The notes beneath the pieces were generated by a model. The model made no database searches, was not told where the DNA came from, and worked only from the letters and a program-made list of their open reading frames with translations. Shown here one piece after another: positions 3,120 to 54,847 of a DNA stretch of 64,000 nucleotides. Where the stretch lies: positions 14,942,110 to 15,006,109 of the forward strand of contig NC_134030.1 of assembly GCF_964204645.1 (NCBI RefSeq), given 5' to 3'. This DNA comes from Tubulanus polymorphus. Its lineage: Eukaryota; Animalia; Nemertea. A program made the translations under genes and the position numbers. The stretch's first letter is position 1, and each line of letters opens with the position of its first letter.

Positions 3120-4422
3120 AGTAATAGGAAATATGTTGTTCTAGATCAAAGGTCGAAAGGTCGAGTGAGTAAAAAATGAAAAAGAAATTCTCGCACACTC
3201 GAATTTATTTTTCATTTTCTACTCACTCAACCTCTCAACCTTTAATCTAGAACAACTTATTCCCTATTTCTCTTAAAATATTCATATTTAAAAAGGTGAG
3301 TAAAGTGTTAGCATAATAATCTAGAAAAATAAGATCAAATATAGATTTCGAATAATAAAAAATAAATTTTCAATATAAAAAGTGTGAGTAAAGTGTGAGT
3401 AAAGTGCAAACATAAAAAGTGTGAGAAAAAGTAACGAGTAATTAACGAGTTGTTAGAATTAAAATCAATTTTTAAACATAAAAAGTGTGAGCAAAGTGTG
3501 ATTGAAATAATTCATATTTAAATCATTGAATATTTATATTTGAATGAGTTTTAATAAAAGTTTTGTTATTAAAATGAAGAAAGAAGAAGAAGAACCCAAC
3601 TTCAAAATCGAAATAAAAGAAACCAATAAATCATTTTCACAGTAACATTAGAAATTATATTTCAGCAACAAATTTAGTGTCCGCAAGACATTATAAAATC
3701 GATAACATAACTATGATTAATCAAATATCATCAAATGAAACATATTTAATTACTGAACTAATTGATACTTTTGATAATGGTGTTAAAAATCCTAAAATAT
3801 TTAATACAGTTTTAAAATTAAAAGGAACTTTAGATGAAAACATAATAAATATTCTTAAAACTCCTTTCAATGGAAGAAAAAGTGATATGATACTTGCTAA
3901 AGATTACAATGATTTGATTAAATTAAGAATTGAAAAAAGACAATTATATTATTTCAATTTTCATAATAAACAAATTATCTATAATGAAAATTCATCAAAT
4001 ATTGGTATTCAATGTGAATTGGATAATGAACAATCATTTAAAGATGTTGCAGTTCAATGTAATTTAGATGATGAATTTAGAAAATTCAATCCTAATGAAA
4101 AAGTGTATTGTTATTGTGGTGGCAAATATTTAAATCACATAAATCAAAACATTATCAGACAATCAAACATATCGAATATGAAAAGAATAATAATTCTATA
4201 TTGAAATAAGATTAAGCTGTATGTTTCAAATATATAGTAGTTAAAGCATTGAGAAATTAGTTAATGAATAACTGTTACGTAGTAAGTTAAATTGTTATTT
4301 GATTTGAAACATATAAAGTTAAATATTCATATTCAAAATAAGATATTTCAAATTATTTTTTTTCACTTTTTACTCACTCGACCTTTCGACCTTTGATCTA
4401 GAACAACATATTCCCTATTACT
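3120..4422. mobile_element. Non-autonomous Polinton-family element A (1303 bp)
   Basis: AGTAATAGG...CCTATTACT termini; 6-bp TSD TACTGG at 3114-3119 and 4423-4428; left terminal hairpin 3120-3271. Confidence 0.92.
3574..4204 (+). pseudogene. Element A cargo ORF (~205 aa family, C-terminal CxC..H..H zinc finger), frameshifted
   Basis: Highly similar to ORFs 53755-54345 and 56284-56931. Confidence 0.75.
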
Positions 4423-6443: not shown

Positions 6444-6955
6444 AGTAATAGGGGTAATGGGCTTTCATACCAAAGGTCGAACGGTCGAGCTCGTAAAAAA
6501 TGAAAATAATAATAATTTACAGTTGAATTAGTCGCGCACACTCCTAATTCAACTGTAAATTATTATTATTTTCATTTTTTACTCACTCGCCCCTTCAACC
6601 TTTGATATGAAAGCCCATTACCCCTATTACTCTTAAAATATTCATATATATATATGAATAACATTTAAATTGACAGATTATTCAATATAAAAGTATATAT
6701 TTACAACATTATTTCAATATTCATATTTGTATGAGTTAGATTTTTAAACATTAAAAGTGTTAGTAAAGTGTGATTGAAATCATGCATGATATAAATCATT
6801 GAACTTCTAAAATCAATTTTAATAAAAAATTTAGTATTAAAATGGAAGCAAATAAGTACTACTGTCCAACATGTAATATCAATATAGATAAATCCCAAAA
6901 ATCAAGACACAATAAAACTAAAACACATTTAGAGAATAAATTGAAACTAGAATAT
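6444..6955 (+). repeat. Left TIR of element B with 188-bp terminal hairpin (6444-6631)
   Basis: Reverse complement of ~22990-23398; extends into the first ~38 codons of pPolB. Confidence 0.9.
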
Positions 6956-9900
6956 GAAGATGATATATTAGAAACTAAATTAGATGAATTAAAGAATGAA
7001 AAGGAAACATACAAATGTGATACATGTAATCAATCATTCAGTGATAAAAGATATTATAAAGAACATTTAAAATCTAAAAGTCATTTTAGAAATAAGAATA
7101 ATGATATTTTAGGTGAAGATTATTTTGATAAAGATAATGATAAGAAACAGAAGACAATTAAAAGCATAAAAAATAAATTAAACAATAAAAGACCATACAT
7201 AGAAGATGTAAGAAATTAATATTAATTCATTAGATAATAAAAAAGAAGTAGAGATAACCGAAGCATTTAAAAGTGATATTGGTCCAGCAGCTATCGAGTT
7301 TAAATTTCATAAAGGAAAAACATTAGAAGAAAATAAAAAACATTTAGAAAATATGAATGAAATAATAAAAATAATAACTGATGTTGAATATCCTAAAATT
7401 AGTATATCAGTTAATGTAAAGTTAATAAAATCTGAAGATAAACCAATATATAATATAAATTCTCATTCACAACATATTATATCTAAACAACATATAGATG
7501 ATAAATGTTATAATGAAGTAAAAACTAAAATAGAAGAGAAATATTTTGAAGGATCTGGTTTAATATTTGATGAAATAATATTTATGACTTTACATGTTTA
7601 TAACACAAAATATAATAAGTTAACTAAATCAAAACCAATTGATGAAAATAATGTATCATATTATAAAGAACCAGATATTGAAGCATCGAGTTATATTGAA
7701 CTACCATTTAAAACTAATGCTGTTATAAATATACAAAATGAAGATGATAAATGTTTTCTATGGGCTATAATAAGTTGTTTACATCCAACAGAAGATATTA
7801 CACATAGTTTTAGATTAACTCATTATAAACCATTTGAAAATAATTATAAGATAGATAAGTATCCTGTCAGAATTAAAAACATCCCAAAGATAGAAAGAGA
7901 TAATAATTTAAGAATAAATGTATTTGATTTAATCAAATTACCAAATACAAAAGGTAACAATATAAAACATTATACATTAGAACCTTTATACCTATCAAAA
8001 GATTATGATTCAAACGATGTTATAGATATATTATATTATGAGAATCATTATATGTGGATTAAACAAATAGATTTATTTTTTAAATCAGAAAATGATCACC
8101 ATAAAATATATCTTTGTAGAAAATGTTTACATCGATTCAGTAATGAAAGTACATTATTAAATCATAAACAATTATGTGATAATCATGATTATTGTAAATT
8201 AGTTTTACCAAATGAAAAAGATAAAATATTAGAATTCAAAAAATATGATTACAAAAATAAAGTTCCATTTGTTATATATGGAGATTTTGAATCATTAAAT
8301 AAAGAACTAACTGATCAAGATAGAAAAGAAATATATTATAAAAGAAAGAAATTAAATTCAAATGAAAATGATTTTTCAGATGACCCACCAAAAACAAATA
8401 CTATTAAAAAGATTCATCAATCAGCTGCAGCTTTCGGGTTATATATAAAATCTGATTATCCAGAACTAATTGAAAGTGAATATTATGATTATAGAAATGA
8501 AAATGTTATCAATCATTTTTGTGACTTATTAATTGAATATGAAATAAGATTTAGTAAATTATTGAATACAAATATAGAAATTATAATGACAGAAGAAGAT
8601 AAAGAAGAATTTGCGTTTGCAGATAAATGTTATTATTGTGAAAAGATATATAATTTTAGAGATAAAAAAGTAAGAGACCATGATCATTTGAATGGAAAGT
8701 TTAGAGGCGCTGCGCATGAGAATTGCAATTTGCAAGCTAGGAAAATTAATTTTGTACCAGTTATATTTCATAATCTATCAGGATATGATGCACATTTATT
8801 TATCAAACAGTTATGCCATAAAATAGAAGAAATTAATAATGAAATAGAAAGATTAAATTCAAATAGATCAAAAGATAAAATACCAACTTATAAATTTAGA
8901 ATGTTAGCTAAAACATCTGAGAATTATATATCATTCCAATTTGGTTGCCTAAGATTTATAGATTCATATAGATTTTTACATAGTTCATTAGATAACTTAT
9001 CAAAATCATTAGTTGATGATGAATTAAAGATATTAAAAGAATATTACCCAAATATTGATGATTTTAAATTAATGAGATATAAAGGTGCAATTCCATATTC
9101 ATTTTATAAATCACATAATGATTTCAATATAACTGAATTATTGAAAGAACAATTTTATGATGAATTAAAAAATGAATATGTTAAAGATGAAGTCTATAAT
9201 AGAACATTGAATATTTGGAATCATTTCAAAATAGAAAATCATGGCCAATTAGTAGATTTATATTTAAAATCAGATGTATTATTATTAACCGATATATTCG
9301 AAAGGTTTAGAGATGTAAACCTAAAATATTTTAATATTGATCCTTGTCATTGTTATTCATCACCAGGTTTAACATGGGATTGTGGATTGAAATTTACAAA
9401 TATAAAAATGGATTTGTTAACAAATATAGATCAATTACTATCATTTGAAAAATCTATAAGAGGAGGAGTTTCAGGTGTATTAGGTGATAGATTCAATGTA
9501 AATGATAACCCTGGATATAAGTTATTATATATAGATGCAAATAATTTGTATGGTTGGGCAATGATGGAACCACAACCTTATGGAGTATTTGAATTAACTG
9601 AAGTTTTACAGAATGAAAATAATGATAAATTTGATTGGAAGAAAAGAATTCTAGATATTGCAGATGATTCAGATACTGGTTACTTTTTTGTTGTAGATTT
9701 AGAATATCCTGAACATATTAAATTTAAATCTAGAAATCTAGCTTACTGTCCCGAACATAAAACTGTAACTCATGAAGAATTATCAAATTATCAAAAAAGA
9801 ATTAAACCCGAAAATCATATTCATACAGAAAAGTTAATGGTATCTCAAGAAGATAAATATAATTATGTAGTACATTATAGAATGTTAAAGTTTTATCTAA

Positions 9901-10867
9901 ACAAGGAATGGTTCTAAAAAAAGTACATAGATATATTTCATTTAGTCAATCTAAGTGGTTAAAAAAATATATAGATTTTAACACCAAACAGAGAACTGAA
10001 GCTAAAACTGATTTCGAGGAAGATTTCTTCAAGTTAATGAATAATGCATTCTATGGTAAGACTTGTGAAAATATTAGAAATAGAAATGATATTGAGTTAG
10101 TCAGTAATGGTAAAAGAATTAGACATTTACAAACATATCCTAAGTTCATTGGTAACAGAATATTTGATGAAAATTTAGCCGCAGTTATGATGAGAAGAAC
10201 ATCAATGAAATTTAATAAACCAATCTATGTTGGCGCTTCAGTTTTAGAATTATCAAAATTACTAATGTATGAATTCTATTATAATATATTACAACCACTT
10301 TTTGGAGAAAAACATATAGAAATATTATATTTTGATACCGATTCTTACATATTAAAGATAAAAACTGATAACATAACTGATGATTTAAAAACATTAAAAC
10401 ATCATTTTGATTTTAGTTATTATCCTAAAGATCAAGAATTGTTTAGCAATGATAATAAAAAAGTTCCCGGTAAATTCAAAGATGAATTAGGTGGTGAAGA
10501 AATGATTGAATTCATCGGTATTAGATCTAAAATGTATTCATATAAAACTAAAGAACATGAAGCTAAAAAGTTAAAAGGAATAACCAAAAGTGTAGTAGAA
10601 AAGAATATTCATTTCAAAGATTACATCAATTGTATATTCAATGAAGAAGTTAGAAAACATAAGATGAGATGTTTAAGATCTGAGTACCACGATATGTTTA
10701 TTGAAGAAATTGAAAAGATAAGTCTAAACCCATTTGATGATTAAAGATATATTTTAGATGATGGAATTCATACAGTTGCTTATGGTTGCAATTTAGATGA
10801 ATACTTAAAATTTAAAAGGGAAGAGACAAAAGATAACGAGATAATGAAAAGAATTCTAACGTGTTAA
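6842..10867 (+). pseudogene. pPolB: Protein-primed family B DNA polymerase with N-terminal zinc fingers, OTU-like region and inserted endonuclease VII-like domain; 2 frameshifts and 1 nonsense codon
   Basis: Exo I YGDFES, Exo II FHNLSGYD, Exo III YLKSDV; Pol A YIDANNLYG, B KLMNNAFYGK, C YFDTDS; C-terminus PFDD*RYILDDGIHTVAYG; pieces are ORFs 6842-7219, 7353-9917 and 9908-10744. Confidence 0.95.
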
Positions 10868-10896
10868 TCAAATTTTAATAAAAATATGTTATTAAA

Positions 10897-11250
10897 ATGG
10901 AGAGTAAACAAGCGCACAGTGAGAAAAACAAATTATTTCTAGATAGAATAAAAGATACTACAAATATAAAATCTGTAGATTATAAATTCAAAAAGTTAAC
11001 AGAATTAACAATCCATAAGAAATATCTAATTACAAATATTGATACAGTTACTAATAACTATGGAGATAAATTAGTTATACACTTAGAATATGAAGGATTA
11101 AAAGGAAATACATATAAATTCAGAACATATTTACCGGATAGATTTCATAGATTATCAAGTGAAGACTTAGAAGAATTATGTTCTGGAGATTTCTATTTCG
11201 TATACAAAGGTAAGAATGAAAAAGGGCACCATGAAATAGATTTCGAATAA
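10897..11250 (+). CDS. Polinton 117-aa protein, possibly an OB-fold ssDNA-binding protein
   Basis: Intact ORF directly after pPolB with the same upstream motif; beta-strand-like pattern; function inferred. Confidence 0.55.
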   Translation: MESKQAHSEKNKLFLDRIKDTTNIKSVDYKFKKLTELTIHKKYLITNIDTVTNNYGDKLVIHLEYEGLKGNTYKFRTYLPDRFHRLSSEDLEELCSGDFYFVYKGKNEKGHHEIDFE

Positions 11251-11267
11251 GAAAATATGTAAAATAA

Positions 11268-12039
11268 ATGGCGGAATTAAAAGAATACAGAAAATTTGTT
11301 GATTCTAGAAGACTTACAAATTATAAATCACATAATTTACTAGTACAATTAGATAGAGAATTTAAGAATTGTGTAGATTTAAAATTAGTTAATATAAGTA
11401 TATATGTAATTCTTTTTACAATATATCGAATAAAACTATTGAACATAGAGCTTTTTTAATTTTTAATAAAAATAAAAATGAATGGGTCTATATATAATTA
11501 AAACCGGGGTTATATAATTTAGATACATTAGCACAAGAAATTAATAGAAAAGCCTGGCACAAATTAGGTAGTAGTTCTGGGTTTAGTATTAGATTTTTAA
11601 AAAGTGAGAGTTCTGATAGAATAAAGATAAGGTTGTCTAATAGTGAAAAACATAAATTTATGGTAAAAAACCTATAGCTAAACTGTTAGGAATTCTTCCA
11701 GATAGATCTTTTACAAATATTGACGCTACTACACAAAACTTAATACCTTACACACATTTTTATATTTATTGCAATTTAATCGATCCTACAAAAACATTCG
11801 AAGCAACTAAAGATATAACTTGTAATTCTGGTTTACTAAACATTTTACCATTGAAGAATGTTAAAGAATTTGGAACGCAAATAAATTATAATTTAACAGA
11901 ATGTGATTTCAAACCATGCATTCCTCGTTTTAATAATTTTAGATTAGAAATTAGAAATAATAATGGATACTTAATTGATTTAAATAATTTCCCATGTAAT
12001 TCCCTGTAATATGAATTAGTTGTTAGATGTAAAGAGTAA
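11268..12039 (+). pseudogene. Minor capsid protein (penton), frameshifted
   Basis: Across frames: FVDS..N..V.L, KLLG, FYIYCNLID, LLNILPL..GTQINY, FRLEIRNNNGYLIDLNNFP; typical Polinton mCP pattern. Confidence 0.7.
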
Positions 12040-12056
12040 TTTTTTTCACTATATAA

Positions 12057-12398
12057 ATGAATATAACTGTTGGACCGAGTATATGTTTTGGGTTTGATTT
12101 TAAACATGGTAAAGAAATGAGAATTAAACTAAATGATGTAATTACTGATATAAAAAGTAAATCATTTAACAATGCATCAATGATTAATAAAGAAAATTAT
12201 AATATAGAAAAAGTAATTGATTTAATTAAATCACCTTTAGAATATTATGAATTAAATGAAGATGGAATTATTGATGATATTAAAAACATATTATCCAAAA
12301 TATATGATAATCATCAAAGTAGTAATGAAATAAATGTTGAATTAATCATCACTAAGATAACTAAATATTTTGATGATAGTAATTTTTTTGATAAATAA
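12057..12398 (+). CDS. Polinton hypothetical protein (113 aa)
   Basis: Intact ORF starting at a T-run/TAAATG motif. Confidence 0.65.
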   Translation: MNITVGPSICFGFDFKHGKEMRIKLNDVITDIKSKSFNNASMINKENYNIEKVIDLIKSPLEYYELNEDGIIDDIKNILSKIYDNHQSSNEINVELIITKITKYFDDSNFFDK

Positions 12399-12620
12399 AT
12401 GAGTGATAATAAGTGGATAATAACTGGATTATATAATGGCGCATTACTATCAGTTGGAACTGTTGGTTATTCAATGGTATTAAAAAAAGTATTCAAAATG
12501 GGAAGTGTTAATGTTGATAGATTTGATATAAATGATATTTTAAAATTAACATTAGCAGTTACTTTATCTAATTTAACTATTGATTATTTGGAAAAACAAA
12601 AATATATTCCTCCCATATAA
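12399..12620 (+). CDS. Small hydrophobic/membrane protein (73 aa)
   Basis: Two hydrophobic or amphipathic segments; TAAATG start. Confidence 0.7.
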   Translation: MSDNKWIITGLYNGALLSVGTVGYSMVLKKVFKMGSVNVDRFDINDILKLTLAVTLSNLTIDYLEKQKYIPPI

Positions 12621-12645
12621 ATGCATAATTTTTTTTGTTAAATAA

Positions 12646-13068
12646 ATGGCTTCTGCAATTATAACTATTATAGGATCGGCAATTGTTAACGCTTTAGCAT
12701 TTACTGGTGGTGGATATTTATTTAAACATATTGATAAAAATAGTTCATTAGGAGAACAAAGAAGACATAACTTAGCATTAGAGAAATACAATAAAGCAGC
12801 GGAAGAATATAGAGAAAAACGACAAAACTATATGGATTATATTAACAAGGAATTATATGATCAGAAGATTTCACATAGAGATTTTCAATCAGTTGATGAT
12901 GCAATGAGTTTATATAACGCGGTAACAAATAAAGAAAAATTACATCTATACAATCCTAAATTATCAGATTATTATACCCCTAGTAAAGAACAACAGAAAT
13001 ATGAAATAATATGGATTTTCGGTGGAACAGTTATTGTTATATTTGTAGCGTATAAATTTACTAATTAG
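12646..13068 (+). CDS. Membrane protein: N-terminal hydrophobic helix, coiled coil, C-terminal TM (140 aa)
   Basis: MASAIITIIGSAIVNALAFTGGGYLF...IIWIFGGTVIVIFVAY. Confidence 0.75.
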   Translation: MASAIITIIGSAIVNALAFTGGGYLFKHIDKNSSLGEQRRHNLALEKYNKAAEEYREKRQNYMDYINKELYDQKISHRDFQSVDDAMSLYNAVTNKEKLHLYNPKLSDYYTPSKEQQKYEIIWIFGGTVIVIFVAYKFTN

Positions 13069-13088
13069 TAATTTTTTTGGCCAAATAA

Positions 13089-13523
13089 ATGGAAGATAAA
13101 GTTGATAATATTGATATTATTCCTCATGATATAAATAAAACTAAATTAAAAACATATTTAGAAAAACAAATATTAGAATTTGAAAGTGACTTAAAGGTAA
13201 AAAAGAAAAAATATTTAAAAAGTAAAATTATATATTATTTGATTATAAGTGGTTCGGTTACAATTAGTTCTGTAATAACATTTCTAGCAATATTCAGTCC
13301 ATTAACACCTTTAGCTATATCAATTGGTGTATTAGGATTAAGTTCAAGTGTTTTAACCGGTATAAGTTCAAAATTAAATATAAAAAGTAATTAAGAAAAA
13401 ATTAAAACTAATATAAAAGAAATTAATAAATTAACGAATACACTAGATTATATAATAAGTTTAAATGGTCATATAACAGTTGAAGAACAAGATAAATTAT
13501 TAAAAGAATTAGTTAATTATTAA
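13089..13523 (+). pseudogene. Two-TM coiled-coil protein with premature stop at 13392
   Basis: Two hydrophobic helices; the frame stays open past TAA (EKIKTNIKEINK...ELVNY*). Confidence 0.65.
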
Positions 13524-13539
13524 TTTTTTAGTTATATAA

Positions 13540-14928
13540 ATGGCAGATAGTTTTCCAAAAGTTTTCCAATATAATAAATCACTTAAATATAATATTCCTG
13601 CAATAGATTTTAATAAAGATATTACATATAGAAATGAAGTTTTAGATTCATTAACTAATCTAGAAATTTATGTCACTGAAACTAATAATTTTAATGCAAA
13701 GATGGAAAATATATTTCATGTATATTTAATTAATTTTAAGAAATTGAAAGATGAAAAACAATGGTTATTAAAATCTAACATGAAGTGTTGGCAGAACCAA
13801 TTAAATTTTGCTGTTTATTGTGCAACAACAGGATGTGGAATTAGTTGGAATGATCATTTGAATAATTCTAAATATAAATTAATTCAAAGTTTATTTAGAT
13901 TTCATACATACTTTCAAATAAGAATAATATTAAATGAATTAGAGTGCGCTTTACCAGGATCTAGATATTTTAAAGAATTAGATAATAATATTAATTTATC
14001 AAAGTTTTATAAAATTTGTAATGAATTTAATATAGATATAAATAATTCTGATTTTAGAACAAAAATTGGAACAATAAGATCACTTCCTTGCCCTAAAAAG
14101 ATTGCAGAATATTGTGCACTTCCCATACCATCTAATAGTTTTTATAATATCTATAGTAATAAATTAGGTTATGGTAAAATAGAAACTAAGGATTTAGAAA
14201 CATTAAATTTCAATAAATTACCGACATTTTATGATAATTTAAAACAAGAAAACAATAATGGTTGGGTTTATTTTATTTTAGAAAATAGTGAAGGTTTTAC
14301 TAAATCAGGTATAGAAAGAATAAATCAATCAATTAGAACTTATTTGATATGTATTTTAGGTGCGCAAGTTGAAACAAGATCCCCAATAATTGGAAATATG
14401 AATACATCATTCGATACACAAAAACAATTTAAAGTTTTATTTGAAGATTCCATACATAATGATAAAAATAGATCGATTCCAGAAAACATTGTAAGATATC
14501 AAAATTATTTAGATAAATCACATATTAGATTAAATTATTGTATAGGTCCTAATCTATTTATTATTTCTAATGATTTAGTATTAAAGATGGGAAACATAAT
14601 TTGTTATAATAATCTAATTAAAACTGCAACAATAAATAATTCATTTGGATTGAATGATATAAATAAAAAGATTATCACTGCTCCAAAATTAATGGAAGGT
14701 GAAAAAAATAAAAAACACATTCAATCAACAGAAACTAAAACTAATAATATCAAATTAAATAATGATTCTAAAATAAAAGATTACAATACATCAGAAGATA
14801 TTAAAACCGATATTATTCAACATGATATAATTAAACTAAATGATGATAATAAATCCCATGAAAATACTAAATTAGCTATAACTTGTATAGGAATTGTAAT
14901 CGGAGGAATATTATATTTTAAAATTTAA
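13540..14928 (+). CDS. Polinton 462-aa protein of unknown function with C-terminal TM anchor
   Basis: Intact ORF; WQNQLNFAVYCATTGCGIS, FRFHTYFQIR; ends LAITCIGIVIGGILYF. Confidence 0.8.
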   Translation: MADSFPKVFQYNKSLKYNIPAIDFNKDITYRNEVLDSLTNLEIYVTETNNFNAKMENIFHVYLINFKKLKDEKQWLLKSNMKCWQNQLNFAVYCATTGCGISWNDHLNNSKYKLIQSLFRFHTYFQIRIILNELECALPGSRYFKELDNNINLSKFYKICNEFNIDINNSDFRTKIGTIRSLPCPKKIAEYCALPIPSNSFYNIYSNKLGYGKIETKDLETLNFNKLPTFYDNLKQENNNGWVYFILENSEGFTKSGIERINQSIRTYLICILGAQVETRSPIIGNMNTSFDTQKQFKVLFEDSIHNDKNRSIPENIVRYQNYLDKSHIRLNYCIGPNLFIISNDLVLKMGNIICYNNLIKTATINNSFGLNDINKKIITAPKLMEGEKNKKHIQSTETKTNNIKLNNDSKIKDYNTSEDIKTDIIQHDIIKLNDDNKSHENTKLAITCIGIVIGGILYFKI

Positions 14929-14944
14929 TTTTTTTATTATATAA

Positions 14945-15681
14945 ATGGATGTAGAATTTGGAGAAGATATTCCATTGGATCCTTTAGATGAACCTGGTAT
15001 AAGTGATGAACAACAACCTGATTTTAGTGAAACAAGTTTTAATGACGGTAATGAGCCAGAATATAATACTAATTTAGGTGAAGATGATGATTATGATGAT
15101 GATTATGATGGTATGAAAGGAGAAAGTTAGCTTTAGAAAAAGAAATAGATGATTTAAAATATAACAAAGAATTACAGGAAAAAGAAAGAGATACATTATT
15201 AAAATCATATGATCTTAATCATATTAAAAAATTGAAAGTTATTTTTAAAGATTTGTTGATAAAACCAGATTCTAAAATATCATTGAAAGATAGAATAAAG
15301 TTATTATTTAAATTAGAAGGAATAACAATTCTTTCAATTTTAACAGCTGTAACTATGTTATTTACAACAATTGGTTTAGCAATATCAAATGCTTTAAAAT
15401 CTTCGCCTACTCCCAATAAACCGGATAAACCCCCAGATAATAATTCTATACAAGATAAAGTTAAAGATGGTTTAAAGAAATTAGCAAAATATTTATGGGA
15501 ACTATCTAAAAAATCTGCTGCAGCTTTACCAGGAATTATTGCATCAATTGTTGGTTTTATATTGAAATCTGCTGGGAATATTCTTAACTTTGCTGCTGAA
15601 CATATTATTTTATTTTTAATTACAGTTGTAAGTGCTATTATTTTTGGGTTAGTGAACATGATATCAAAAAATATCAAGTAA
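14945..15681 (+). pseudogene. Acidic N-terminus, multi-TM protein (broken into ORFs 14945-15130 and 15232-15681)
   Basis: TAAATG start, acidic tract, then hydrophobic helices. Confidence 0.65.
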
Positions 15682-15721
15682 ACATGATAAAAAATAAATA
15701 ATTAATTTTTTTGTTAAATAA

Positions 15722-16969
15722 ATGAGTGGGAGTTATATAAGTCCTTCTAAGATTTCTAGAATATCTAATGCTATTAAAGCAGAAAGATCACATCATATAA
15801 TTACTCATAACCCTTCTAATATCAATCCCGATGAAACTTTATATGTTAGAATTCCTAGATTAACACAAAATACTTTTTATGTTCCAAATAGTATTTATTT
15901 ATCAGCCGATATAAAAGTAATCGGTAATAATAGTAATTATGTTGTTGATAATGTTGGAAGATATTTGATTAAAAAATTAACTATAAAGATTGGTCCAGAA
16001 ACAGTTTTCTCATTAGATGATTATAATTTATTTATGCATTATAAAGATTTATGGTTAACTAAAGAAAATAGAAATAATATGATATTTCAAGGAATCGAAT
16101 CAGAAAACCAAAATAAATTAAGATCTGAAGCCAATAATGCAGTAGTAACTAATGACGTAGATAATTTGATTAAAAAGATTTATGGAAGCAAATATAAAAT
16201 TCCATTAGACTTTGAATTGATAAATAACAATGCGCCTTTATATAAATACGCAATTCAAGAAGACGTTATATTCGAAATAACATTCGCTCCTGTAAATGAA
16301 ATTGTATTATCTAGCGTTAATAAAGATATGAGTTATAAATTATCGAATATATGTTTAGAATATGATACAGTAACTGATGAAAATATTTCAAGTATAATTC
16401 AAACTCAATACAATCAAGGATTTTCATTATTATATGATTATATTGATAAATTTAAAACCGTAACTATTAATGCAAATTATGAAATAATTAATGAGAATAT
16501 TAACTTCCCAAGAAGATCTATTAAAGGTGTATTAATATTTTTTACCATTGCAACATATACTAATGGCGCAATAAATGTTGATAATTATTATAATCCTGAA
16601 ATAACAAAAGTAGAAATAACTATCGAAGGAATAGCAAATAAAATATTTTGTCAAGGAATGAGAATGATAGATCAATGGCCAGAAATTATAAAACATTTTA
16701 TGAATGAAAAAGTAAAATCATTTGAAAATTGTAATATTAATCAAATTGATTATTATACCGGTAATAAATATGCATTATGGTTAGATTTTAGAACAACAGA
16801 GGATAATTCATTACATGGTTCTGGAAAAAAATTACAAAATACAAAAGATGGAATACAATTATTCATGACAAAGAAAAGAGGAGACAAAAATTTCAAAATG
16901 CACATTTATATTATATCTGACGCGCAATTAAATATTGTAAATTCTCAATTAAATAGTGTTATGTATTAA
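15722..16969 (+). CDS. Major capsid protein (double jelly-roll, inferred)
   Basis: Intact 415-aa beta-rich ORF; THNPSNI..LYVRIP..VVDNVGRYLIKKL..YKDLWL..NICLEYD..LWLDFRT..LHGSG; position and size fit a Polinton MCP. Confidence 0.8.
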   Translation: MSGSYISPSKISRISNAIKAERSHHIITHNPSNINPDETLYVRIPRLTQNTFYVPNSIYLSADIKVIGNNSNYVVDNVGRYLIKKLTIKIGPETVFSLDDYNLFMHYKDLWLTKENRNNMIFQGIESENQNKLRSEANNAVVTNDVDNLIKKIYGSKYKIPLDFELINNNAPLYKYAIQEDVIFEITFAPVNEIVLSSVNKDMSYKLSNICLEYDTVTDENISSIIQTQYNQGFSLLYDYIDKFKTVTINANYEIINENINFPRRSIKGVLIFFTIATYTNGAINVDNYYNPEITKVEITIEGIANKIFCQGMRMIDQWPEIIKHFMNEKVKSFENCNINQIDYYTGNKYALWLDFRTTEDNSLHGSGKKLQNTKDGIQLFMTKKRGDKNFKMHIYIISDAQLNIVNSQLNSVMY

Positions 16970-17001
16970 AACTTTAACTTTAATAAATATTTATTATATA
17001 A

Positions 17002-17823
17002 ATGGAAGGAGGTAAAGTATATAAACATATTCCATACATCGATACACATGAAAATAATGATGGTTTTTATTATGTAATACCTTGTAATATAGCTTTGATA
17101 TTTGATCCTATTTTCAAAATTTATAAAACTAAACTAATAGAAATCGATAATAATAAAAGTGAAGTTGTTGATAATTTAAGTAATGTAATTGATAATAATG
17201 TAATGCCTACTACAGTAATACCTACTACATCTAATAATGTAATACCTTCTACATCTAATAATGCAATAATATTAAATGTTAGTGAAAATAGAAATTATTG
17301 TGATTATTGTAAAGATGAATATTCAAACGCTCCATCAAATTGGAATAAACATATGAATACAAATTCACATATTACTAATGTTATAGAACGTGTTCGTTTA
17401 AAAGAATTTATAGAACACCCATTTAGATATGTTACAAAATTTGTTTCAAATAAAAAAGTAAATGGTAAAGAATTATATGAAGATTTTTTATTAGCAACAC
17501 CTAATAAAGATGAATTAGATTTAACTGATGCTAATGAAATATTAGGATCAAACACTGTAAATGAAATATTAGGAGCAAACACTAATAAAGATTCTATGAA
17601 ACATAAAGTAGAAAATAATGATAAATTTGATTGGATGAATAAGCATAACAATGAAACAACTATTGATGATTCGGTAAAAAAGGTGAAAAATAAGTATAAA
17701 AATAATAGAGAATTTGAAGAAGAAAATTCGGTAGAGAATTTGAGAAAATTGTTAGGGTCTGATAATGAATTGGAGAGTGATGATGAAAGTGATTCAGAAA
17801 GTAATTATCTAACAATCAAATAA
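17002..17823 (+). CDS. Hypothetical protein with C2H2 zinc finger and acidic tail (273 aa)
   Basis: CDYC..WNKHMNTNSH; TAAATG start. Confidence 0.7.
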   Translation: MEGGKVYKHIPYIDTHENNDGFYYVIPCNIALIFDPIFKIYKTKLIEIDNNKSEVVDNLSNVIDNNVMPTTVIPTTSNNVIPSTSNNAIILNVSENRNYCDYCKDEYSNAPSNWNKHMNTNSHITNVIERVRLKEFIEHPFRYVTKFVSNKKVNGKELYEDFLLATPNKDELDLTDANEILGSNTVNEILGANTNKDSMKHKVENNDKFDWMNKHNNETTIDDSVKKVKNKYKNNREFEEENSVENLRKLLGSDNELESDDESDSESNYLTIK

Positions 17824-18189
17824 TAATAAAGGTTGAAAATTGTATAAAATAATAGTAAATAAAAAAGGGGGTTTTAAGTATTAAGGTATCTAATACATAT
17901 ATAATACGTATTTAATACATATCTAATACATATCTAATACATATTATTTGAAAATACCTTAAATTATATTTCTTTTTTAAATTTATGTTGAAACCTCAGT
18001 AATAATAAATAACCTTTATTATTTTCAAACTTATTCATATATTAGTTGAAATAATAAAAATAAATTGGTTGAAAATTGTATAAATAATATTTATTTTAAA
18101 AAAGGGGGTTTTAAGTATTTAAGGTATCTAATAGGGTATCAGGTATTGGGGTATCTAATAGGGTATCTAATACATAGGTATATAAATAG

Positions 18190-18801
18190 TTATTTCATAA
18201 ATTTATATTCATATGGAAATTGTAATCTCAGTAATAATTTTGAACCTTTATTATTCTTTAATTAATTCATATATTCATCATATAATTCAGTAGGTATAAT
18301 TTGATTTTCTTCCAATGATTGTTGCATAGATTTTCTATCTTTATTGTAGAATAAAACTAGAAATCTTATATTCTCCCTAAAGTCTTTAACAATTGCATTA
18401 TATTTTTGATTTAAAACCCATGTTGTTATCCCAAAATGTCTTCCAGAGAAAGCTAAATAACATAACTCACTTTCTCTCACTTTTGATTCATGTAAATTTG
18501 CGCAATCATCTATAATGAATAATGTATTTGATCCTTTATAAGTATCAATTGCTATTTTAATACAATTATCTAAATTTTCTTTTACTGTTTTAGGATCTAA
18601 TATAATAAACTTTTTCATCTTAACTATATCTCTATTATATGTTTTATTCATTTCATAAGTAGGACAGAATAATATTATATTATCAAAATGATTCTTATAA
18701 ATAGTTTCTAACAAGTCTAATATGAAATGTGTTTTACCACAGTTTGTTACTCCAGTAACTAACATGTTATGAGGATCAAATATAAATAAATCTTTATTCA
18801 T
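18190..18801 (-). pseudogene. A32/FtsK-like packaging ATPase with nonsense codon at 18262
   Basis: Walker A GVTNCGKT, Walker B FIIDD, GRH motif; the frame continues about 23 codons past TAA. Confidence 0.9.
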
Positions 18802-19890
18802 TTATTCTTTTAATTTTACTAGATAAAATCCATTCATTAAATTTATCATCGTATCCTTTATATTTCACCAAAGAATACTTTTTTCCTTTAAGAGTTTTGT
18901 TTTCAATACTTTTTCTATTTTGTATTCTATTTCATCTGGATTTGGTACAAGTGATAATTCGTGTTCATAGAAATAACCTAATATTTCTTCATCTTTTAGA
19001 TCTTCTAATTTATAAACAAATGGTTTAGTTAATATTATCTTTTTAATCTTAAATATTTCTTCAGTAAAATTTGGAGTATAACCTTTATAAAATGTTTTTC
19101 TATATTTAGATATTCTTACGTGTTGTCCTATTTTAAATTTAGGTTCACCGAAATCATGTGTAACAAACGCTCCATATAAATTATTCCAAACTATTTCCGA
19201 ATTATCTTCTTTTCTAGCTTGTATAGGTTTTATATTTATAGAACTATGTTTAGAATTATTATAACCTTTCACTAAATCATCTTACATATTTATAGACTCA
19301 TCGATATATTTATATGTTTCATTAGCAGTAAAATATTTCCACATTCTAGTTTTCAATGTTTTATTAAATCTTTCTATAATAGATGCTTTTTTATCTGAGT
19401 GTGTTGAAAAATAATCTACATCGTTATCAGATAATAGTTTTTTGAAATGTTTGTTATAGAATTCCTTACCTTCATCAAATTGTATCTTATCTGGAATAGC
19501 TTCTTTAAATATAGATTTAAAAGCATTTGTCACTTCTATACCAGTTTTATTTTTGATTGGAATTGACCATGCGTATTGACTGAATATGTCTATAACATTC
19601 AGTATCCAGAAATATCCTTTGTTGTATTCCTCTAAGTTCTTCATGTCAATTAAATCTGCTTGCCATTGTTGATCGATATATGAAACCATAACTTTTCTTG
19701 TTAAATAAGTTTTATCCATTTTCTTGTGGATTTGATATGTTGGTTGATTTTGTAACCATGATTTTAATTCGCTATATTTTATACCACCATTATCAGATTT
19801 AATTTTATTCCATAATTCTGAAACGGTAGAATATGATACTTCACTTTCTGGGTTATAATATAAATCTCTTAAATATTATTCTTTTTTCAT
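18798..19890 (-). pseudogene. Retroviral-like (rve) integrase with C-terminal chromodomain, disrupted
   Basis: LYYNP, QADLID, QFDEGKEF, IERFNKTLK, YNNSKHSSI, FKIGQHVRISK, YKIEKVLK..LVKYKGY..FNEW. Confidence 0.92.
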
Positions 19891-20379
19891 CTTATTTTAA
19901 TCCATTAATAATAATTTAGATTTAGTTTCAATGGTTTTATGATTTGACTTATTTTCTGGTATAATAGGTTTATTGTCTGTACACGGATAACTAAGTTTCC
20001 GATTTTCATTGGAATCATCTTTATCATCAGATTTGAATTTTGATTTATATATTACACCGGATAATATAATAACTGTGATTAACCCAATTGTAATATATAA
20101 TTTATAATTACTTCCAGCATTAGAAGAATCAGATGGATTATCATTCGAATCAATATCAGATAATTTCTGTGATTCATTTTTATCAGTTTATTTCTTTTTC
20201 TTAGCTTTTTTTAATTCTAAAGATCTTTTACCTAATTCTCTTGCCCATTTAATTTGTTTCTCTATATCAGTTAATTTCTTTTTCTTAGCTTTTTTTAATT
20301 CTGAAGATCTTTTACCTAATTCTCTTGCCCATTTAATTTGTTTCTCAGATCTAGCCTTTTTCTTAACTCCATCACTCAT
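19890..20379 (-). pseudogene. Basic repeat protein with downstream TM segment (frameshifted)
   Basis: Duplicated EKQIKWARELGKRS.ELKKAKKK unit; IYITIGLITVIILSGVIY in an adjacent frame. Confidence 0.55.
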
Positions 20380-20966
20380 TTATTTTAGTTAATTTTTGTT
20401 CTGATTCATTTTCTGTTTCGACGTTTGGTTGTAGTACATCTGTTTCGTTCTTACCTGATTTATATTCCATAGGTTTGATGTTCGAAAATGTTATGACACC
20501 AGTAGAAATTAATGTCATAACCGATCCTAATTGAAATGAAGCATAACCAACCCATTTTTGTAATTCAGTCATAACTAAGTAGTCATTTTTCAAATCACTA
20601 TATAATTTATTTTCATCATCAATTGGTATTAACTGGTTACATAACTTAGAATAACATTTGACAATACCATCACTTATAGAGTCGTTTATTCTAGCTAATC
20701 TTGACTCTTCATAAATCTTAAAATATTTTATTACTTTATCTGGTTTCATAGAGTCTAGTTCTTGAAAAGTAATGATTCTATTTAAAAACTCATTAACCGG
20801 CAATCAATAGTTCTATATGGTGCTTACAATATAAATAGTATTCATAATCTATATTGTTATTAACTTGAATAAAATTAGAAACAACTGTATCTTTATTATC
20901 ACTAATACCTAAATCATCTAATGTCTTTTCAATATCAATACTATTCTTACTCGATTTCTTTGACAT
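20372..20966 (-). pseudogene. Hypothetical protein with C-terminal hydrophobic segment (frameshifted 5' part)
   Basis: ORF 20372-20803 plus an upstream TAAATG start at 20966. Confidence 0.6.
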
Positions 20967-22016
20967 TTATATTAGAGAAATTTAATAAGAAAAATATTAT
21001 AAGTATTATAAAATGATACTAGCTAGTTAAAACTAAAGAATTCTAGTATTGACTACTGATACTAGCTATTTGAGTTTAAAGAATTTCTATTCGGATCTAT
21101 TCAAAATATAAAGTATTCTCTTTTGAAAAGAAAGTATTAGAAATATAATAGAATTCACTAACTAGTTGAAGTTATTGTTTTTTAAATACTTTTTATTTAA
21201 ATTAGGATTTAGATTATCTAACTACTATTGTCTATCTATTAGGAGCAGTAATTATAACTGTCCAGATAAGTCATTTCGGATTCTCGATAATAAATCCTAA
21301 AACTGAAAATAAATTCAAAGAAACGACTGTTGGAAATACTATTTCATAAACACACGTATATTTTATTCTACAATCATTATCGATTTCCACATTCCAAGCC
21401 GCTCCAGAGAGGAGCGGTAAGGTATGCGTGGAATGCAGGAATCAATAAAATACAATACAACATCTGTCACTGTGCGACATTAACAACAGCTTAATGACGC
21501 AATTGACATTCCGACAAACGTAATGCATTGAAAGCCTATACAGTATGGCTAAACTGCTACAGTCTCATGAGTTGAAATATCCATTATTTCTGATTCCACA
21601 TCCATCGATCTTCACTTTCTTGATTCAATAGTCTTCATTTAGTTATCTAAAAGATAAATATCTAGCGTAGAATAAAACTAACTTGAAGTTGTAGTTGTAA
21701 AATATTAATTACAACACTTAAACATGACCATTTTGTGGCGCATCTTACCAGGATAAGTTTTACATGTTTAGCGTTTTCCAACGCCTTAATAACAACAAAA
21801 ACAGTACTTACATTTATAACTGTAAACTCCTAAAATTGTGTTTATAGAGAGAATATCCTATACGTTTCTATGCTTATGTGCTGCGCGTTTATAACTGCCA
21901 GTTATTCACTAGCTAAACACTGTCTGGTGCAACAGATGTTCCTTTGTTTTTTTATGATTAATCCTTTTCAACTGAAATAGCACAATCGATCAATATTCAA
22001 ATGAGGTGCGCCCCAT

Positions 22017-22775
22017 TCAACTGAATATGAAATACGGCACAGATGTTTTTGTAAACAACCTAATACAATTACATACAGGCGGTTTGACATAGATCGAGAG
22101 AAACCGGTTTTCTAAGCGTTTAACATCAACGTATTTTTCATTATGTGTTGAGTTCCATAATTCAACAAATGTCTTTGCTTTATCCAGTTGATCTAAATAT
22201 AACTGTAAATCTAGTTTATTAGATTTAATTATGTTTTCCTTCTTTTCTAAAGGCCTTAAATTTCTCCAACCCCAAATAAGTTTTTTTTTGTATTCATCAT
22301 TCATGTTAAATTTAGAAATCGGCAACACGTGATCAATATGAAAGTATTCACCATAATCATCTATATTCATTTTATCATCGAATTGATATATTATCCATGA
22401 TTTTAAGAATTCATCTGTACAACCCAATAAATAAGATAGTGTTTCTGAATGTGTTTCTTTGTTGAATAATTGTGTTAATCTAGATCTTAAGCATTGTTTC
22501 AATCTAAAATTAATATCTGTTTGATATCTTTCTCTCATATATTCTGTCATATAATCATTATAAGCTTCTCTATTATCCTCTCGGTATTGTTTGGTATATA
22601 GTTTAAAACAAGTTTTACAGCAATATTGAAAACCATCTTTGCTAATCTTACGCTTACTAAATTCTGTTAAAGCTAATTTATCTAATTCACATTTAGAACA
22701 CTTCTTGCAATATATATTTATAACACCAGCAGTGTTATTTGTAATATTGATAATTTGTGGTTGTTCTGGTTCCAT
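22017..22775 (-). CDS. HNH endonuclease with N-terminal zinc finger, large-DNA-virus type
   Basis: CSKC..F.K...DG...CKTC; LLGCT; FHIDHVLP..NLRPL...EN..KSNK. Confidence 0.8.
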   Translation of the reverse strand: MEPEQPQIINITNNTAGVINIYCKKCSKCELDKLALTEFSKRKISKDGFQYCCKTCFKLYTKQYREDNREAYNDYMTEYMRERYQTDINFRLKQCLRSRLTQLFNKETHSETLSYLLGCTDEFLKSWIIYQFDDKMNIDDYGEYFHIDHVLPISKFNMNDEYKKKLIWGWRNLRPLEKKENIIKSNKLDLQLYLDQLDKAKTFVELWNSTHNEKYVDVKRLENRFLSIYVKPPVCNCIRLFTKTSVPYFIFS

Positions 22776-22852
22776 TTATTATATGTATTTTTTACTAAAT
22801 TGGTTAATATTTTAGAATCCTCTTCCATTTCTTCGACCAACGTCATCCTTTT

Positions 22853-23104
22853 TCATTCCTCGCTGCTTTTGATAAGTTGTTTCGATTCCTTGATATCAAA
22901 TTCCTCAACGTATTGTTCATTATTTGGATCATTATTCCATAATTCAATAAATTTCTTTGCCTTTGTTAACTGTTCTGAATATAACTGTAAATATTCTAGT
23001 TTCAATTTATTCTCTAAATGTGTTTTAGTTTTATTGTGTCTTGATTTTTGGGATTTATCTATATTGATATTACATGTTGGACAGTAGTACTTATTTGCTT
23101 CCAT
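22853..23104 (-). CDS. Chimeric 83-aa ORF: pPolB N-terminal zinc finger joined to an HNH-like tail
   Basis: First 38 aa identical to ORF 6842; the tail resembles the C-terminus of ORF 22017-22775. Confidence 0.55.
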   Translation of the reverse strand: MEANKYYCPTCNINIDKSQKSRHNKTKTHLENKLKLEYLQLYSEQLTKAKKFIELWNNDPNNEQYVEEFDIKESKQLIKSSEE

Positions 23105-23398
23105 TTTAATACTAAATTTTTTTATTAAAATTGATTTTAGAAGTTCAATGATTTATATCATGCATTATTTCAATCACACTTTACTAACACTTTTAATGTT
23201 TAAAAATCTAACTCTATATATATATATGAATATTTTAAGAGTAATAGGGGTAATGGGCTTTCATATCAAAGGTTGAAGGGGCGAGTGAGTAAAAAATGAA
23301 AATAATAATAATTTACAGTTGAATTAGGAGTGTGCGCGACTAATTCAACTGTAAATTATTATTATTTTAATTTTTTACGAGCTCGACCGTTCGACCTT
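22990..23398 (-). repeat. Right TIR of element B (terminal ~29 bp and an internal ~78 bp missing)
   Basis: Near-exact inverted copy of the left TIR, including the hairpin from 23240. Confidence 0.9.
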
Positions 23399-24275
23399 AT
23401 ATTATTATGTGCTATCGTGAAACTGTTCGTAGAATTGGCCGCACAACACCCCTTGCCGTCGTTCTATGCGTTGTTAAAATGGACGCGTGGATCAAATGCG
23501 TTCAGTCAAATGATTATACTGAAGAAATAACGAAACTGAAACTGGATCAAAGAAACTTGATCTATTCTTGGAAGTTGGTTTTGTTAAAGCTTAAGGGCGA
23601 TTAGACAACGCTTTCTTGGAAGATTGCGCGAAGCATCCGATTGTGTTACATCCGAAGAATGCATTTACGAACTTGATAGTAACTGATTTACATGCGAACC
23701 CTGTACATAAAAACTTAGCCTGTACGATGGTTAAAGTTCGTGAAAATTACTTGGTCCCGACTCTTAGACAACTAGCAAAGAAGATCATTGATAAATGTGA
23801 CCCGTGTAATAGGGCCGATGAAAGACCATATGCGAAACCCGTTCCAGCACCGCTTCCGGAATTCCGAGTACAACTTACTCCACCGTTCGCTACCACCGGA
23901 GTCGATTTCTCGGGAGCAGTTACCGTTCGGAAATCTGATATTGTGAATACAGAGCAGGCGTACATTTGCTTATTCACGTGTGCGCGGTCACGAGATTTAT
24001 TCACTTGGAGTTAGTCCCTGATATGTCGGTTCCCAACTTTCTGTTAGCGTTTCGGAAGTTAATGGTATCGGATAATGCGCAAACGTTTCTTGCGACAAAG
24101 AATCAGCTAGGAATGTTGGAGAGGTTCGTTGCTGAGCATGGCTGTAAATGGGACTTTATCCCAAAAAGGCCCCGTGGTTTGGTGGCTATTACTAACGTTT
24201 GATAGGCCTTACGAAATCTGCGTTGCGTAAAGTTTTGTGGAAGACAAAACTAGAGTTCTTCGAACTTATGTTTAA
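23399..24275 (+). pseudogene. pol: BEL integrase region (frameshifted, truncated)
   Basis: HPIVLHP..H..C..C zinc domain, GVDFSG, YICLFTC..RFIHLELV, SDNAQTF. Confidence 0.85.
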
Positions 24276-52580: not shown

Positions 52581-53754
52581 ATATAGCTGCAAGCAGCGAT
52601 AACGGGTTTCTGCCTTTCTGGATAGAATGTCGTTCAGGGATGCGAGCAAAGATTTCACCCGAAATCAGTTCGTTACATTCCGTTTTTGAAAGAGCGCCAC
52701 CTAGGGGTCAACTCCCAACATGGATATGTCGACCCACATGTGCTACTACGCGCAAAGTACTAATGTGCCAGGTTTTGGGGGAAATAACATCGAGAAGAAG
52801 GAAGCTAAGGTGTTTTTACCATTCCCTAGTGACAGTTCAAGCGCATATTCGATTATAATTAGTTCCGAAAAAAGTCGACATTATGAGAAAACCGAATTTG
52901 GCCCAAAGCACAAATTTGGCCTATAGGGTAAACTATGCAGGAGGGAAGGCCTTATAGTGTTACTATTAGTAGAGGAGTGACAAGTCAGTCTGACAAGTCA
53001 AGCGATCAGATGGGGACTGCAATTCACATATGAAATTGACGTCCAATAACCATTATAAAAACATAATCACGAACGGTACCATCACTCCCCATTACTTACT
53101 GTCACTGGTCTCTGGCTAGCAATCATTCTTTATCGGTGCAGTGGGTAGGTATTTTCACCTGACTTTGTTCTTCTATGACATTACCATCTACGCTGCGTCA
53201 CGATGTGATGTACATGTACAAGAGACATCCAATTTGTAATGTATGTAATGTATAAACTGACATTAGACCGTTTAATATCGACGATAACAAGGTATCACCG
53301 ACGCTGACATTTTCTGACGCTAACTAGTATGACCCATACATTAAAAAATGAAAAATATGAAAATAATAACAATTTCTACTTGAATTAGGAGTGAAACTCA
53401 TAAAAAATGAAAAATAATTCTCACACACTCGAATTTATTTTTCATTTTTACTCGCTAGAAAAAAGTGTGAGTAAAGTGTGAGTGAAATAAATTCGAGCGT
53501 GTGAGAATTATTTTTCATTTTTTATGAGTTTCACTCCTAATTCAAGTAGAAATTGTTATTATTTTCATATTTTTCATTTTTTAATGAACTCGACCATTCA
53601 ACCTTTAACCTGAAAGCCCATTACCCCTATTACTCTTAAATTATTCATATACATGAATAAAATATATATGAATAACATATAATTTGATAGATTATTCAAT
53701 ATAAAAGTGTGAGTGAAATAATTCATATTTAAAACATTGAATATTTATATTTGA

Positions 53755-54404
53755 ATGAGTTTTAATAAAAATTTTGTTATAAAAATGAAGAAAGAAGAAG
53801 AAGAACCCAACTTTAAAATCGAAATCAATGAAACCAATAAATCATTTTCACAGTTTAACATTAAAGATTATATTTCAGCAACAAATTTAGTGTCCGCAAG
53901 ACATTATAAAATCGATAACATAACTATGATTAATCAAATATCATCAAATGAAACATATTTAATTACTGAACTAGTAGATACTTTTGATAATGGCGTTAAA
54001 AATCCTAAAATATTCAATACAGTTTTAAATTTTAAAGGATCTTTAGATGAAAACATAATTAATATTCTTAAAACTCCTTTCAATGAAAGAAATGATGATA
54101 TAATACTTTCAAAAGATTACAATGATTTGATTAACTTAAGAATTGAAAAAAGACAATTATATTATTTCAATTTTGATAATAAACAAATTATCTATAATGA
54201 AAATTCATCAAATATTGGAATTCAATGTGAATTCGATAATGAAAAATCATTTAAAGATATTGCAGTTCAATGTAATTTAGATGATGAATTTAGAAAATTC
54301 AATCCTAATGAAAAAGTGCATTGTTATTGCGGAGGTAAATATTGAAAATCACATAAATCAAAGCATTATGAAACAATTAAACATAAAAACTGGTGTAAAG
54401 AGTA
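53755..54404 (+). pseudogene. Cargo ORF, left copy (nonsense codon at 54343)
   Basis: Near-identical to 56284-56931. Confidence 0.8.
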
Positions 54405-54589
54405 ACAATTCTACATTATAATTATTGAATTGAGTTAAATGATTTAAATATCTAATAGACTGTTAAAAGGATAAATTGTTTGACAGTTGAAATGATAAAT
54501 TGTTTGACAGTTGAAATGATAAATTGTTTGACAGTTGAAATGATAAATTGTTTGACAGTTAAAATGATAAATTGTTTGACAGTTGAAAT

Positions 54590-54724: not shown

Positions 54725-54847
54725 TTATTTAAGAGAAAAATTAAACAGTTTATAAAATATTTGCTAGTTTTTAATTAAATATTTTATAATCATTTTAAAA
54801 ATATTAAACTTTTAAATGATTAAATCAAATAACAATTAAATTTACAG

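Follow-up and report, generated by a model that had tools for sequence, protein, structure and literature searches.

The window analysed here, a stretch of 64,000 nucleotides from the nemertean Tubulanus polymorphus, harbours a decayed Polinton/Maverick-type provirus termed element B, most genes of which start in a poxvirus-like context. Judged by the sequence, these pox-style starts are real and lie well above chance, and the element is probably transcribed by the post-replicative machinery of a cytoplasmic helper virus of the Nucleocytoviricota, itself probably pox-like. Element B would thus lead an integrating, virophage-like life, and, if confirmed, represent a variant of the virophage lifestyle. 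It is a Polinton, equipped with pPolB, an rve integrase, double and single jelly-roll capsid proteins, an A32-type ATPase and terminal inverted repeats (TIRs). Its features are listed below, where handles beginning with L denote related metagenome loci.

6444..23399, no strand: element B, a ~17-kb decayed integrated Polinton/Maverick-type provirus with a truncated right end
6842..10867, + strand: pPolB, bearing zinc fingers at its N-terminus and an insert of endonuclease VII type (Pfam zf-C2H2, Endonuclease_7)
10897..11250, + strand: protein of 117 amino acids with an A-rich-core TAAAATG start (ESM Atlas match)
11268..12009, + strand: penton (minor capsid) gene, in pieces, with a TAAATG start and a degenerate A-rich core (assigned by the fold of a homolog)
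13089..13523, + strand: gene of a two-helix membrane protein, in pieces (weak SLATT-like match in the L003 homolog)
15722..16969, + strand: major capsid protein (MCP), double jelly-roll, open frame (predicted structure)
17002..17823, + strand: o17002, with A-rich core and TAAATG start, class kept in L001, L002 and L005
18262..18801, - strand: A32-type packaging ATPase, TAAATG start (Pfam Pox_A32, E=3.6e-12)
18865..19890, - strand: rve integrase, in pieces, start without TAAATG in element B (Pfam rve, E=4.7e-09)
19897..20966, - strand: two conserved genes (starts 20379 and 20966), in pieces, with TAAATG starts and homologs in relatives
22017..22775, - strand: HNH-like gene, TAAATG start (homolog L001:5568 with a weak HNH match, E=0.0055)

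An earlier note on this DNA had reported ATAAATG at 14 starts, and ATAA indeed stands directly 5' of the ATG at 14 of 14 positions. Among the 16 element B starts scored, the list of which came from that note, TAA immediately precedes the ATG in 13; the corresponding figures are 37 of 677 for the remaining ATGs (Fisher p=1.4e-13) and 12 of 155 for ATGs matched in AT content (p=2e-10). When the same upstream bases were redrawn 100,000 times, TAA stood before the ATG 1.4 times on average and never more than 8 times. All 17 starts of the element comprise 13 TAAATG, three TAAAATG (one being the TIR duplicate) and one with neither. The integrase start (19890, - strand) reads TAAAATAAG-ATG and lies outside the 16 scored; the integrase genes of L001, L003 and L037 do begin with TAAATG. 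The starts of the short open reading frames (ORFs) at 11268, 20379 and 20966 are confirmed by intact homologs, and the start at 14945 by position and similar first few residues alone. The genes from 12057 to the MCP share the pattern TAA-T6-8-N5-7-ATAAATG in seven of seven cases, just as had been described:

12038..15724, + strand: seven consecutive T-run promoter-like signals, at 12057, 12399, 12646, 13089, 13540, 14945 and 15722

This T-run signal occurs at 7/16 element B starts and at 0/677 other ATGs, and that of 12399 sits within the coding end of the upstream gene. A role of the T-run as terminator of the preceding gene was considered and rejected: it stands before genes with divergent neighbours (L008, L010, L011, L003:10981) and is absent after the stop at 17823.

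Relatives of the element were gathered by a capsid-based scan, which produced 80 metagenome loci; 49 of these were grouped after inspection, and 31 duplicates or fragments were excluded. TAA precedes the ATG at 63/69 and 8/9 starts in two locus sets and at 0/116 in a third, sister set, while in an ungrouped tally of the 80 loci the 33 with at least two scorable starts fall into nine with the motif throughout, 20 without it and four mixed. The motif is retained despite altered gene order. Of 14 head-to-head pairs, 9 have it on both genes, and in six of these the distance is 25-31 nt. On a capsid tree of 35 rows, three or more changes of the TAAATG trait are needed, and uniting the 20 TAAATG rows in one group is rejected (approximately unbiased test, p=1.2e-4); this group was defined once the tree had been seen, branches are long and L020 is included. 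The trait does not mark one clade, which hints at helper switching. No relatives of element B turned up in the viral contigs or prokaryote genomes searched, and motif scans of viral contigs returned no Polinton and no obvious helper, apart from a single HNH-like match.

In late promoters of poxviruses TAAAT(G) overlaps the start codon, and the T at ten bases upstream is conserved, while intermediate promoters combine an AT-rich core with TAAA and lack the T at ten (PMC11980589, PMC5294985, PMC12917281). The late-type arrangement of TAAAT(G) over the start codon is found in element B and its relatives, where a T lies nine bases upstream of TAAAT at 74/88 starts versus 33/117 internal TAAATG (p=4e-16); at ten bases the counts are 62/88 and 36/117, so the peak is at nine. 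In chordopoxviruses, 177 distinct TAAATG starts among 668 ORFs (21 of 37 loci) have their T peak at ten (68%), although these starts belong to orthologous genes and are hence not independent. The nine-base spacing is compared here with chordopoxviruses; a search for invertebrate poxviruses by the I7 protease gave 31 proteins, of which all named ones are from the chordopoxviruses. Back-to-back spacing of 25-31 nt is shared by six element pairs and six poxvirus pairs. Judged by sequence match, an intermediate-type signal, whose AT-rich core lies between about -26 and -13 and which has a TAAA initiator but lacks the T at ten, is present at 6842, 10897, 3574 and the o17002 homologs, which are few independent genes. 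Taken side by side with vaccinia intermediate and late promoters, the elements thus share TAAAT(G) over the ATG, an upstream T peak, an alternative A-rich core with TAAA and pairs 25-31 nt apart. They differ in the position of the T peak (nine, not ten), in a strong A/W bias just before TAAAT, in having the motif at about nine in ten genes versus about a quarter of poxvirus ORFs, and in lacking early-type promoters.

The upstream sequences fall into two classes. An A-rich class, TTTAATAAA-N-TAAA(A)TG, is found at 6842, 10897, the TIR copy 23104, 3574 in element A and 53785/56901 in element C, two smaller relatives in the window. Its core TTTAATAAA precedes 4/16 element B starts and 0/677 other ATGs, and all nine of its occurrences in the window lie within these elements. 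The signal of pPolB, with a TTTWAATAA core, has the same length and the same distance to the ATG as the vaccinia G8R intermediate promoter printed in PMC12917281:

6817..6844, + strand: A-rich-core promoter-like signal TTTTAATAAAAA..TATTAAAATG of pPolB, within the TIR and mirrored at 23104 on the - strand

The earlier note had proposed such a second class, and its A-rich-core starts are real; since the core also precedes the TAAATG starts at 17002 and 59570, however, the classes are defined by the upstream core and cannot be separated by TAAATG versus TAAAATG. The A-rich class of o17002 is kept in 4/4 copies, and that of pPolB is probably conserved. The staged expression also suggested there, with A-rich-core genes on first and T-run genes later, has about even odds at best: the class is conserved for some genes, yet the gene of the putative single-stranded DNA-binding (SSB-like) protein changes class in L003, and the penton is of the A-rich class in L003 and of the T-run class in L008/L039.

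The favoured scenario runs as follows. A helper would infect the cell, its intermediate and late factors would bind the upstream core, and transcription would initiate within the AAA of TAAAT, where slippage would yield a short 5' poly(A) leader abutting the AUG. Start codons obey a Kozak preference, and a T at -3 would be a poor context if a longer leader were scanned; the T at -3 would be explained if a poly(A) leader abuts the AUG. For vaccinia, initiation in TAAAT and slippage to a poly(A) leader are documented (PMC6831550, PMC7163114). The A-rich-core genes (pPolB, the SSB-like gene, o17002) might come first and the T-run genes (the MCP cluster) later; pPolB would then copy the genome, the A32 ATPase fill the jelly-roll capsid and the integrase return copies to host chromosomes. 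An integrated nuclear copy could meet the cytoplasmic polymerase either through helper factors entering the nucleus or through excision. Naked DNA is not known to use poxvirus promoters other than the intermediate and late ones. Element B has, as stated in the earlier note, no RNA polymerase of its own: neither a DxDGD motif in six frames nor a Pfam match was detected, and pPolB is its sole polymerase-size ORF.

Several observations weigh against this scenario. The T peak is one base off the chordopoxvirus position, and the two profiles correlate modestly, with r=0.50 unshifted, 0.63 shifted by one base and 0.69 by two; an architecture one base shorter fits a related helper rather than a known chordopoxvirus. 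TAAATG starts are also common in some non-pox giant-virus contigs (6/12 in L154 and 8/21 in L146, loci picked by the motif); contigs selected in this way have TAAATG at 104/992 ORFs over 80 loci, and 29 scored TAAATG starts among them show no T peak. The two promoter classes map uncleanly onto replication and structural genes. The element family, being inserted at many sites, reaches the nucleus. Within 60 nt of stops, AATAAA occurs at 27/67 in TAAATG loci (shuffle mean 16.6, maximum 24), which could reflect host poly(A) signals, although it is probably due to the next gene's start, AATAAATG, which contains AATAAA. Finally, synonymous codon shuffling, used to look for selection of a nuclear or a cytoplasmic kind, did not tell the two groups apart (AATAAA observed/expected 0.97 in TAAATG loci versus 0.86 in others, T5NT low on both strands, splice donors also tested). 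The virophage-like lifestyle put forward in the earlier note is partly supported: the architecture lies within one base of chordopox post-replicative promoters, while the helper is inferred. Because other giant-virus contigs are likewise rich in TAAATG starts, a pox-like identity is favoured rather than established: granted a helper, a pox-like virus is somewhat more probable, and another member of the Nucleocytoviricota keeps a considerable, smaller share.

Sister elements without TAAATG provide a useful contrast. In the sister Polintons L015-L032 and L045-L057, TATA or TATAG stands 5-12 nt before the ATG and no poly(A) signal follows the stops. TATA is found within 20 nt of the ATG at 32/52 starts (AT-matched expectation 11.2), TATAG at 12/52 versus 42/3538, and AATAAA after stops is not enriched in these loci (9/103 versus 7.0 expected). 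Asfarviruses use TATA as their late initiator and have short leaders (PMC7163114), and the sequence pattern of the sister loci suggests an asfarvirus-type, helper-specific dialect; an A-rich, Kozak-like context under the host polymerase could contribute. At -3, T is found in 93% of TAAATG starts and A in 66% of sister-loci starts. One sister gene (L018:5082-5579, also in L016 and L017) gives a weak VLTF3-like match (E=3.6e-05) just under the curated cut-off; no such gene was seen in the TAAATG loci.

Could the motif arise without a helper? The earlier note had itself named AT content and stop-start packing as explanations that might undo its reading, and at 21-25% GC over most of its length element B invites the suspicion of a by-product of AT richness and tight packing. 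This origin is ruled out for practical purposes by the AT-matched control given above and by the GC range of the TAAATG relatives (20-44%), the motif being present at 40-44% (L006, L007) and absent at 26-28% (L022, L025); as to packing, one TAA out of 13 (12399) doubles as stop codon of the gene before it, and head-to-head pairs carry the motif. Much the same facts render it very improbable that TAAATG is a translation signal, serving stop-restart or leaky scanning on polycistronic RNAs, and no promoter. Intergenic gaps of 0-50 nt and the exact stop-start of 12057/12399 would suit such a signal, yet the single upstream stop does not, and the motif-bearing head-to-head pairs weaken it further, because they have no upstream cistron. 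Moreover, a fixed T nine bases upstream is a spacing of the DNA-helix type.

The most serious competitor, though an unlikely one, is an autonomous nuclear virus whose TAAATG acts as an initiator for host RNA polymerase II (Pol II), possibly with an element-encoded factor, yielding near-leaderless mRNAs and a pox likeness by convergence. The insertion of the family at many chromosomal sites, several conserved ORFs without known function and the weak VLTF3-like gene of L016-L018 would agree with it, as would the fact that about half of the starts read TATAAATG or AATAAATG and so hold hexamers resembling a TATA box and a poly(A) signal. A TATA box touching the ATG, however, would place the Pol II start past the ATG, the prevailing T at -3 is the opposite of the A in sister loci, AATAAA occurs 50 times in 11.7 kb of coding DNA and is not depleted (observed/expected 1.01), and both the upstream T peak and the head-to-head spacing match poxviruses. 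A slimmer chance still attaches to a polymerase supplied not by a virus but by a capsid-less cytoplasmic linear element like yeast pGKL2. In yeast elements of this kind, pPolB goes together with a pox-related polymerase, TAAAAT as initiator and poly(A) leaders at the 5' end (PMC6831550), and yeast virus-like elements derive from polintons (PMC11161782); but they are known from yeasts alone (PMC10328495), and their upstream motif resembles pox early promoters (PMC6831550), whereas element B has a late-type T peak.

A cytoplasmic helper would have several precedents. Mavirus, the virophage of Cafeteria roenbergensis virus (CroV), likewise has pPolB, an rve integrase, the ability to integrate and a helper-type promoter before nearly every gene, from which its dependence is read (10.1101/2022.07.28.501842, PMC10328495); integrated Mavirus is reactivated by the giant virus. 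But it lives in a protist with a mimivirid helper, whereas element B has an MCP ~9% identical, a likely animal host, a pox-type signal and a dependence deduced from that signal. Helper promoters are used by Mavirus, Sputnik and the Phaeocystis globosa virus virophage PgVV (10.1101/2022.07.28.501842), and CroV-like motifs occur in protist virophages (10.64898/2026.07.28.741278). The occlusion bodies of entomopoxviruses contain Polinton-like viruses (PLVs; Barth et al. 2024, PMC11296320); these Polinton-like genomes are tied to a poxvirus and one lineage is a maverick-polinton branch, but they measure ~12 kb, have adenain and no detected rve integrase, and promoters are mentioned neither in the main text nor in the supplement of that report. 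Adintoviruses/Polintoviricetes (Starrett et al. 2021, PMC8502044) share pPolB, rve integrase, hexon, penton, ATPase and TIRs with element B, which differs by its long terminal palindromes and in that no adenain was found (no Pfam match among 31 window ORFs or 28 ORFs of relatives, several ORFs having no assignment). Promoters, helpers or satellites are not mentioned in PMC8502044, nor promoters in 10.64898/2026.10.13.758929 and 10.1101/2024.03.23.586382. The yeast plasmids pGKL1/2 resemble element B in being linear and encoding pPolB, and their genes have poly(A) leaders and initiators of the pox-like form TAAAAT (PMC6831550). They differ in having no capsid, no integration and a polymerase of their own on pGKL2. 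The borrowing of this polymerase by pGKL1 is a further parallel. Our literature search, which left subscription papers and bioRxiv supplements outside its scope, found no report of pox-type promoters in integrase-bearing animal Polintons.

The expression and self-sufficiency of animal Polintons are a long-standing question, for which the usual picture is nuclear, and a helper-type promoter before nearly every gene makes it directly testable. If true, the virophage lifestyle would extend from protists to integrase-bearing animal elements, and sequence alone might tell by what type of large DNA virus a host is infected. The matter also bears on the debate that pits nuclear-escape against virophage-first views (PMC10328495). 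A wider proposition, on balance doubtful, is that many animal Polintons, rather than being autonomous nuclear viruses, are virophages integrated in the genome and dependent on Nucleocytoviricota that infect animals. Each lineage would use its helper's promoter dialect (pox-type TAAATG, asfarvirus-type TATA/TATAG), having switched repeatedly in the course of the capsid tree, and would express its genes in two steps, intermediate before late; such elements could serve as an inherited defence against large DNA viruses, and their start motifs would predict undiscovered pox-like viruses of marine invertebrates.

Regarding gene content, decay has broken up several genes of element B, among them those of pPolB, penton, ATPase and integrase. 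The pPolB is split over the frames 6842-7219, 7212-9917 and 9881-10744, with a stop ahead of the tail; its homologs, of 1319-1365 amino acids and 73-77% identical, begin at the zinc finger, and PF03175 is matched in more distant homologs and in L028. The ATPase runs for 179 amino acids up to the first stop (204 in relatives). That the ORFs are intronless, as the earlier note had supposed, agrees with colinear intact relatives such as L003, though the element B copy itself is broken up. Named homologs come from molluscs and arthropods at 32-38% identity; like the env-bearing and BEL retroelements of the window, they would suggest an invertebrate host. The MCP model (predicted local distance difference test 82) matches the capsid of Paramecium bursaria chlorella virus 1 (PBCV-1; Foldseek E=1.7e-15) and the mavirus MCP (E=5.7e-12); its sequence relatives are animal Polinton capsids, identity to mavirus and Sputnik capsids being 9-13%. 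As this MCP is not of the virophage type, element B would fall outside the Lavidaviridae/Virophaviricetes. The homolog L003:565 is predicted to fold like a penton, with Z scores of 13.4 against a PBCV-1 chain, 10.9 against the penton of mavirus and 10.5 against Sputnik. For the 10897..11250 product the nearest named ESM Atlas cluster is Phi29_Phage_SSB (score 0.85), which makes it a candidate single-stranded DNA-binding protein, as a lead only. The two-helix membrane protein (13089-13523; L008:2348 family), conserved in both relative groups and matching SLATT_fungal in L003 (E=0.0013, under the curated cut-off), is a candidate abortive-infection effector. No usable ESM Atlas match was obtained for a gene of 442-462 amino acids, and no convincing solved-structure match for L028:1788. 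The close relative L003 also encodes a deoxynucleoside kinase, a typical gene of large DNA viruses (10340-10981, Pfam dNK E=1.7e-31), with a T-run TAAATG start. Within element B, a region of ~1 kb with higher GC (20980-22020) has no match in the 80 related loci and is possibly a host insertion.

Element B is inserted inside a BEL/Pao retrotransposon (DUF1759 match). Its TIR arms lie at 6473-6655/23216-23398 (99%) and 6716-6955/22991-23234 (97%). The left end begins with AGT, in keeping with the AG...CT ends of Polintons, and a target duplication of its own is not visible since the right end is truncated; the related elements A and D have 6-bp target duplications. Among same-species raw genomic reads placed on 6000-14800, 1899 break off at 6444 with unlike flanks, and cover is ~105-560 per direction in element B compared to 5-8 in the flank bin; on account of this high cover and these reads, the family must comprise many insertions. 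The left terminus forms a hairpin-prone structure:

6444..6631, no strand: terminal imperfect palindrome of element B, 188 nt, able to fold as one hairpin

Its DNA fold reaches -74.1 kcal/mol (z=-22, 0/200 shuffles). Long imperfect palindromes of ~87-343 nt, each a single hairpin, constitute the element ends 6444-6631, 57052-57394 and 58963-59049 (z -22 and -27). Together with the endonuclease VII insert of pPolB, they hint at hairpin-primed replication or resolution. Terminal palindromes are known in protist PLVs, mostly those without pPolB (10.64898/2026.07.28.741278).

Ends of the type AGTAATAGG are common to four further elements (3120-4422, 53342-57394, 58963-59932 and 63969-64000), and these appear to be a family of non-autonomous derivatives nested in the window, in some of which a promoter of the A-rich class precedes a cargo gene:

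3120..4422, + strand: element A, short non-autonomous relative with a 6-bp target duplication and an A-rich-core TAAAATG at 3574
53342..57394, no strand: element C, non-autonomous relative with a cargo gene in both TIRs (A-rich core) and a 343-nt terminal palindrome
58963..59932, no strand: element D, 970-bp derivative that retains part of the pPolB start, has an A-rich-core TAAATG at 59570 and shows a 6-bp target duplication

Element C further contains a T-run TAAATG gene at 54724 (- strand) and, at 54434-56221, a 24-bp tandem array, which on the minus strand reads in frame and gives a repeat of eight residues. Elsewhere in the window, a Gypsy-type retrotransposon occupies 43911-51500; besides a chromodomain it has an envelope gene of baculovirus F-like type, and direct repeats lie at ~41046 and 51748.

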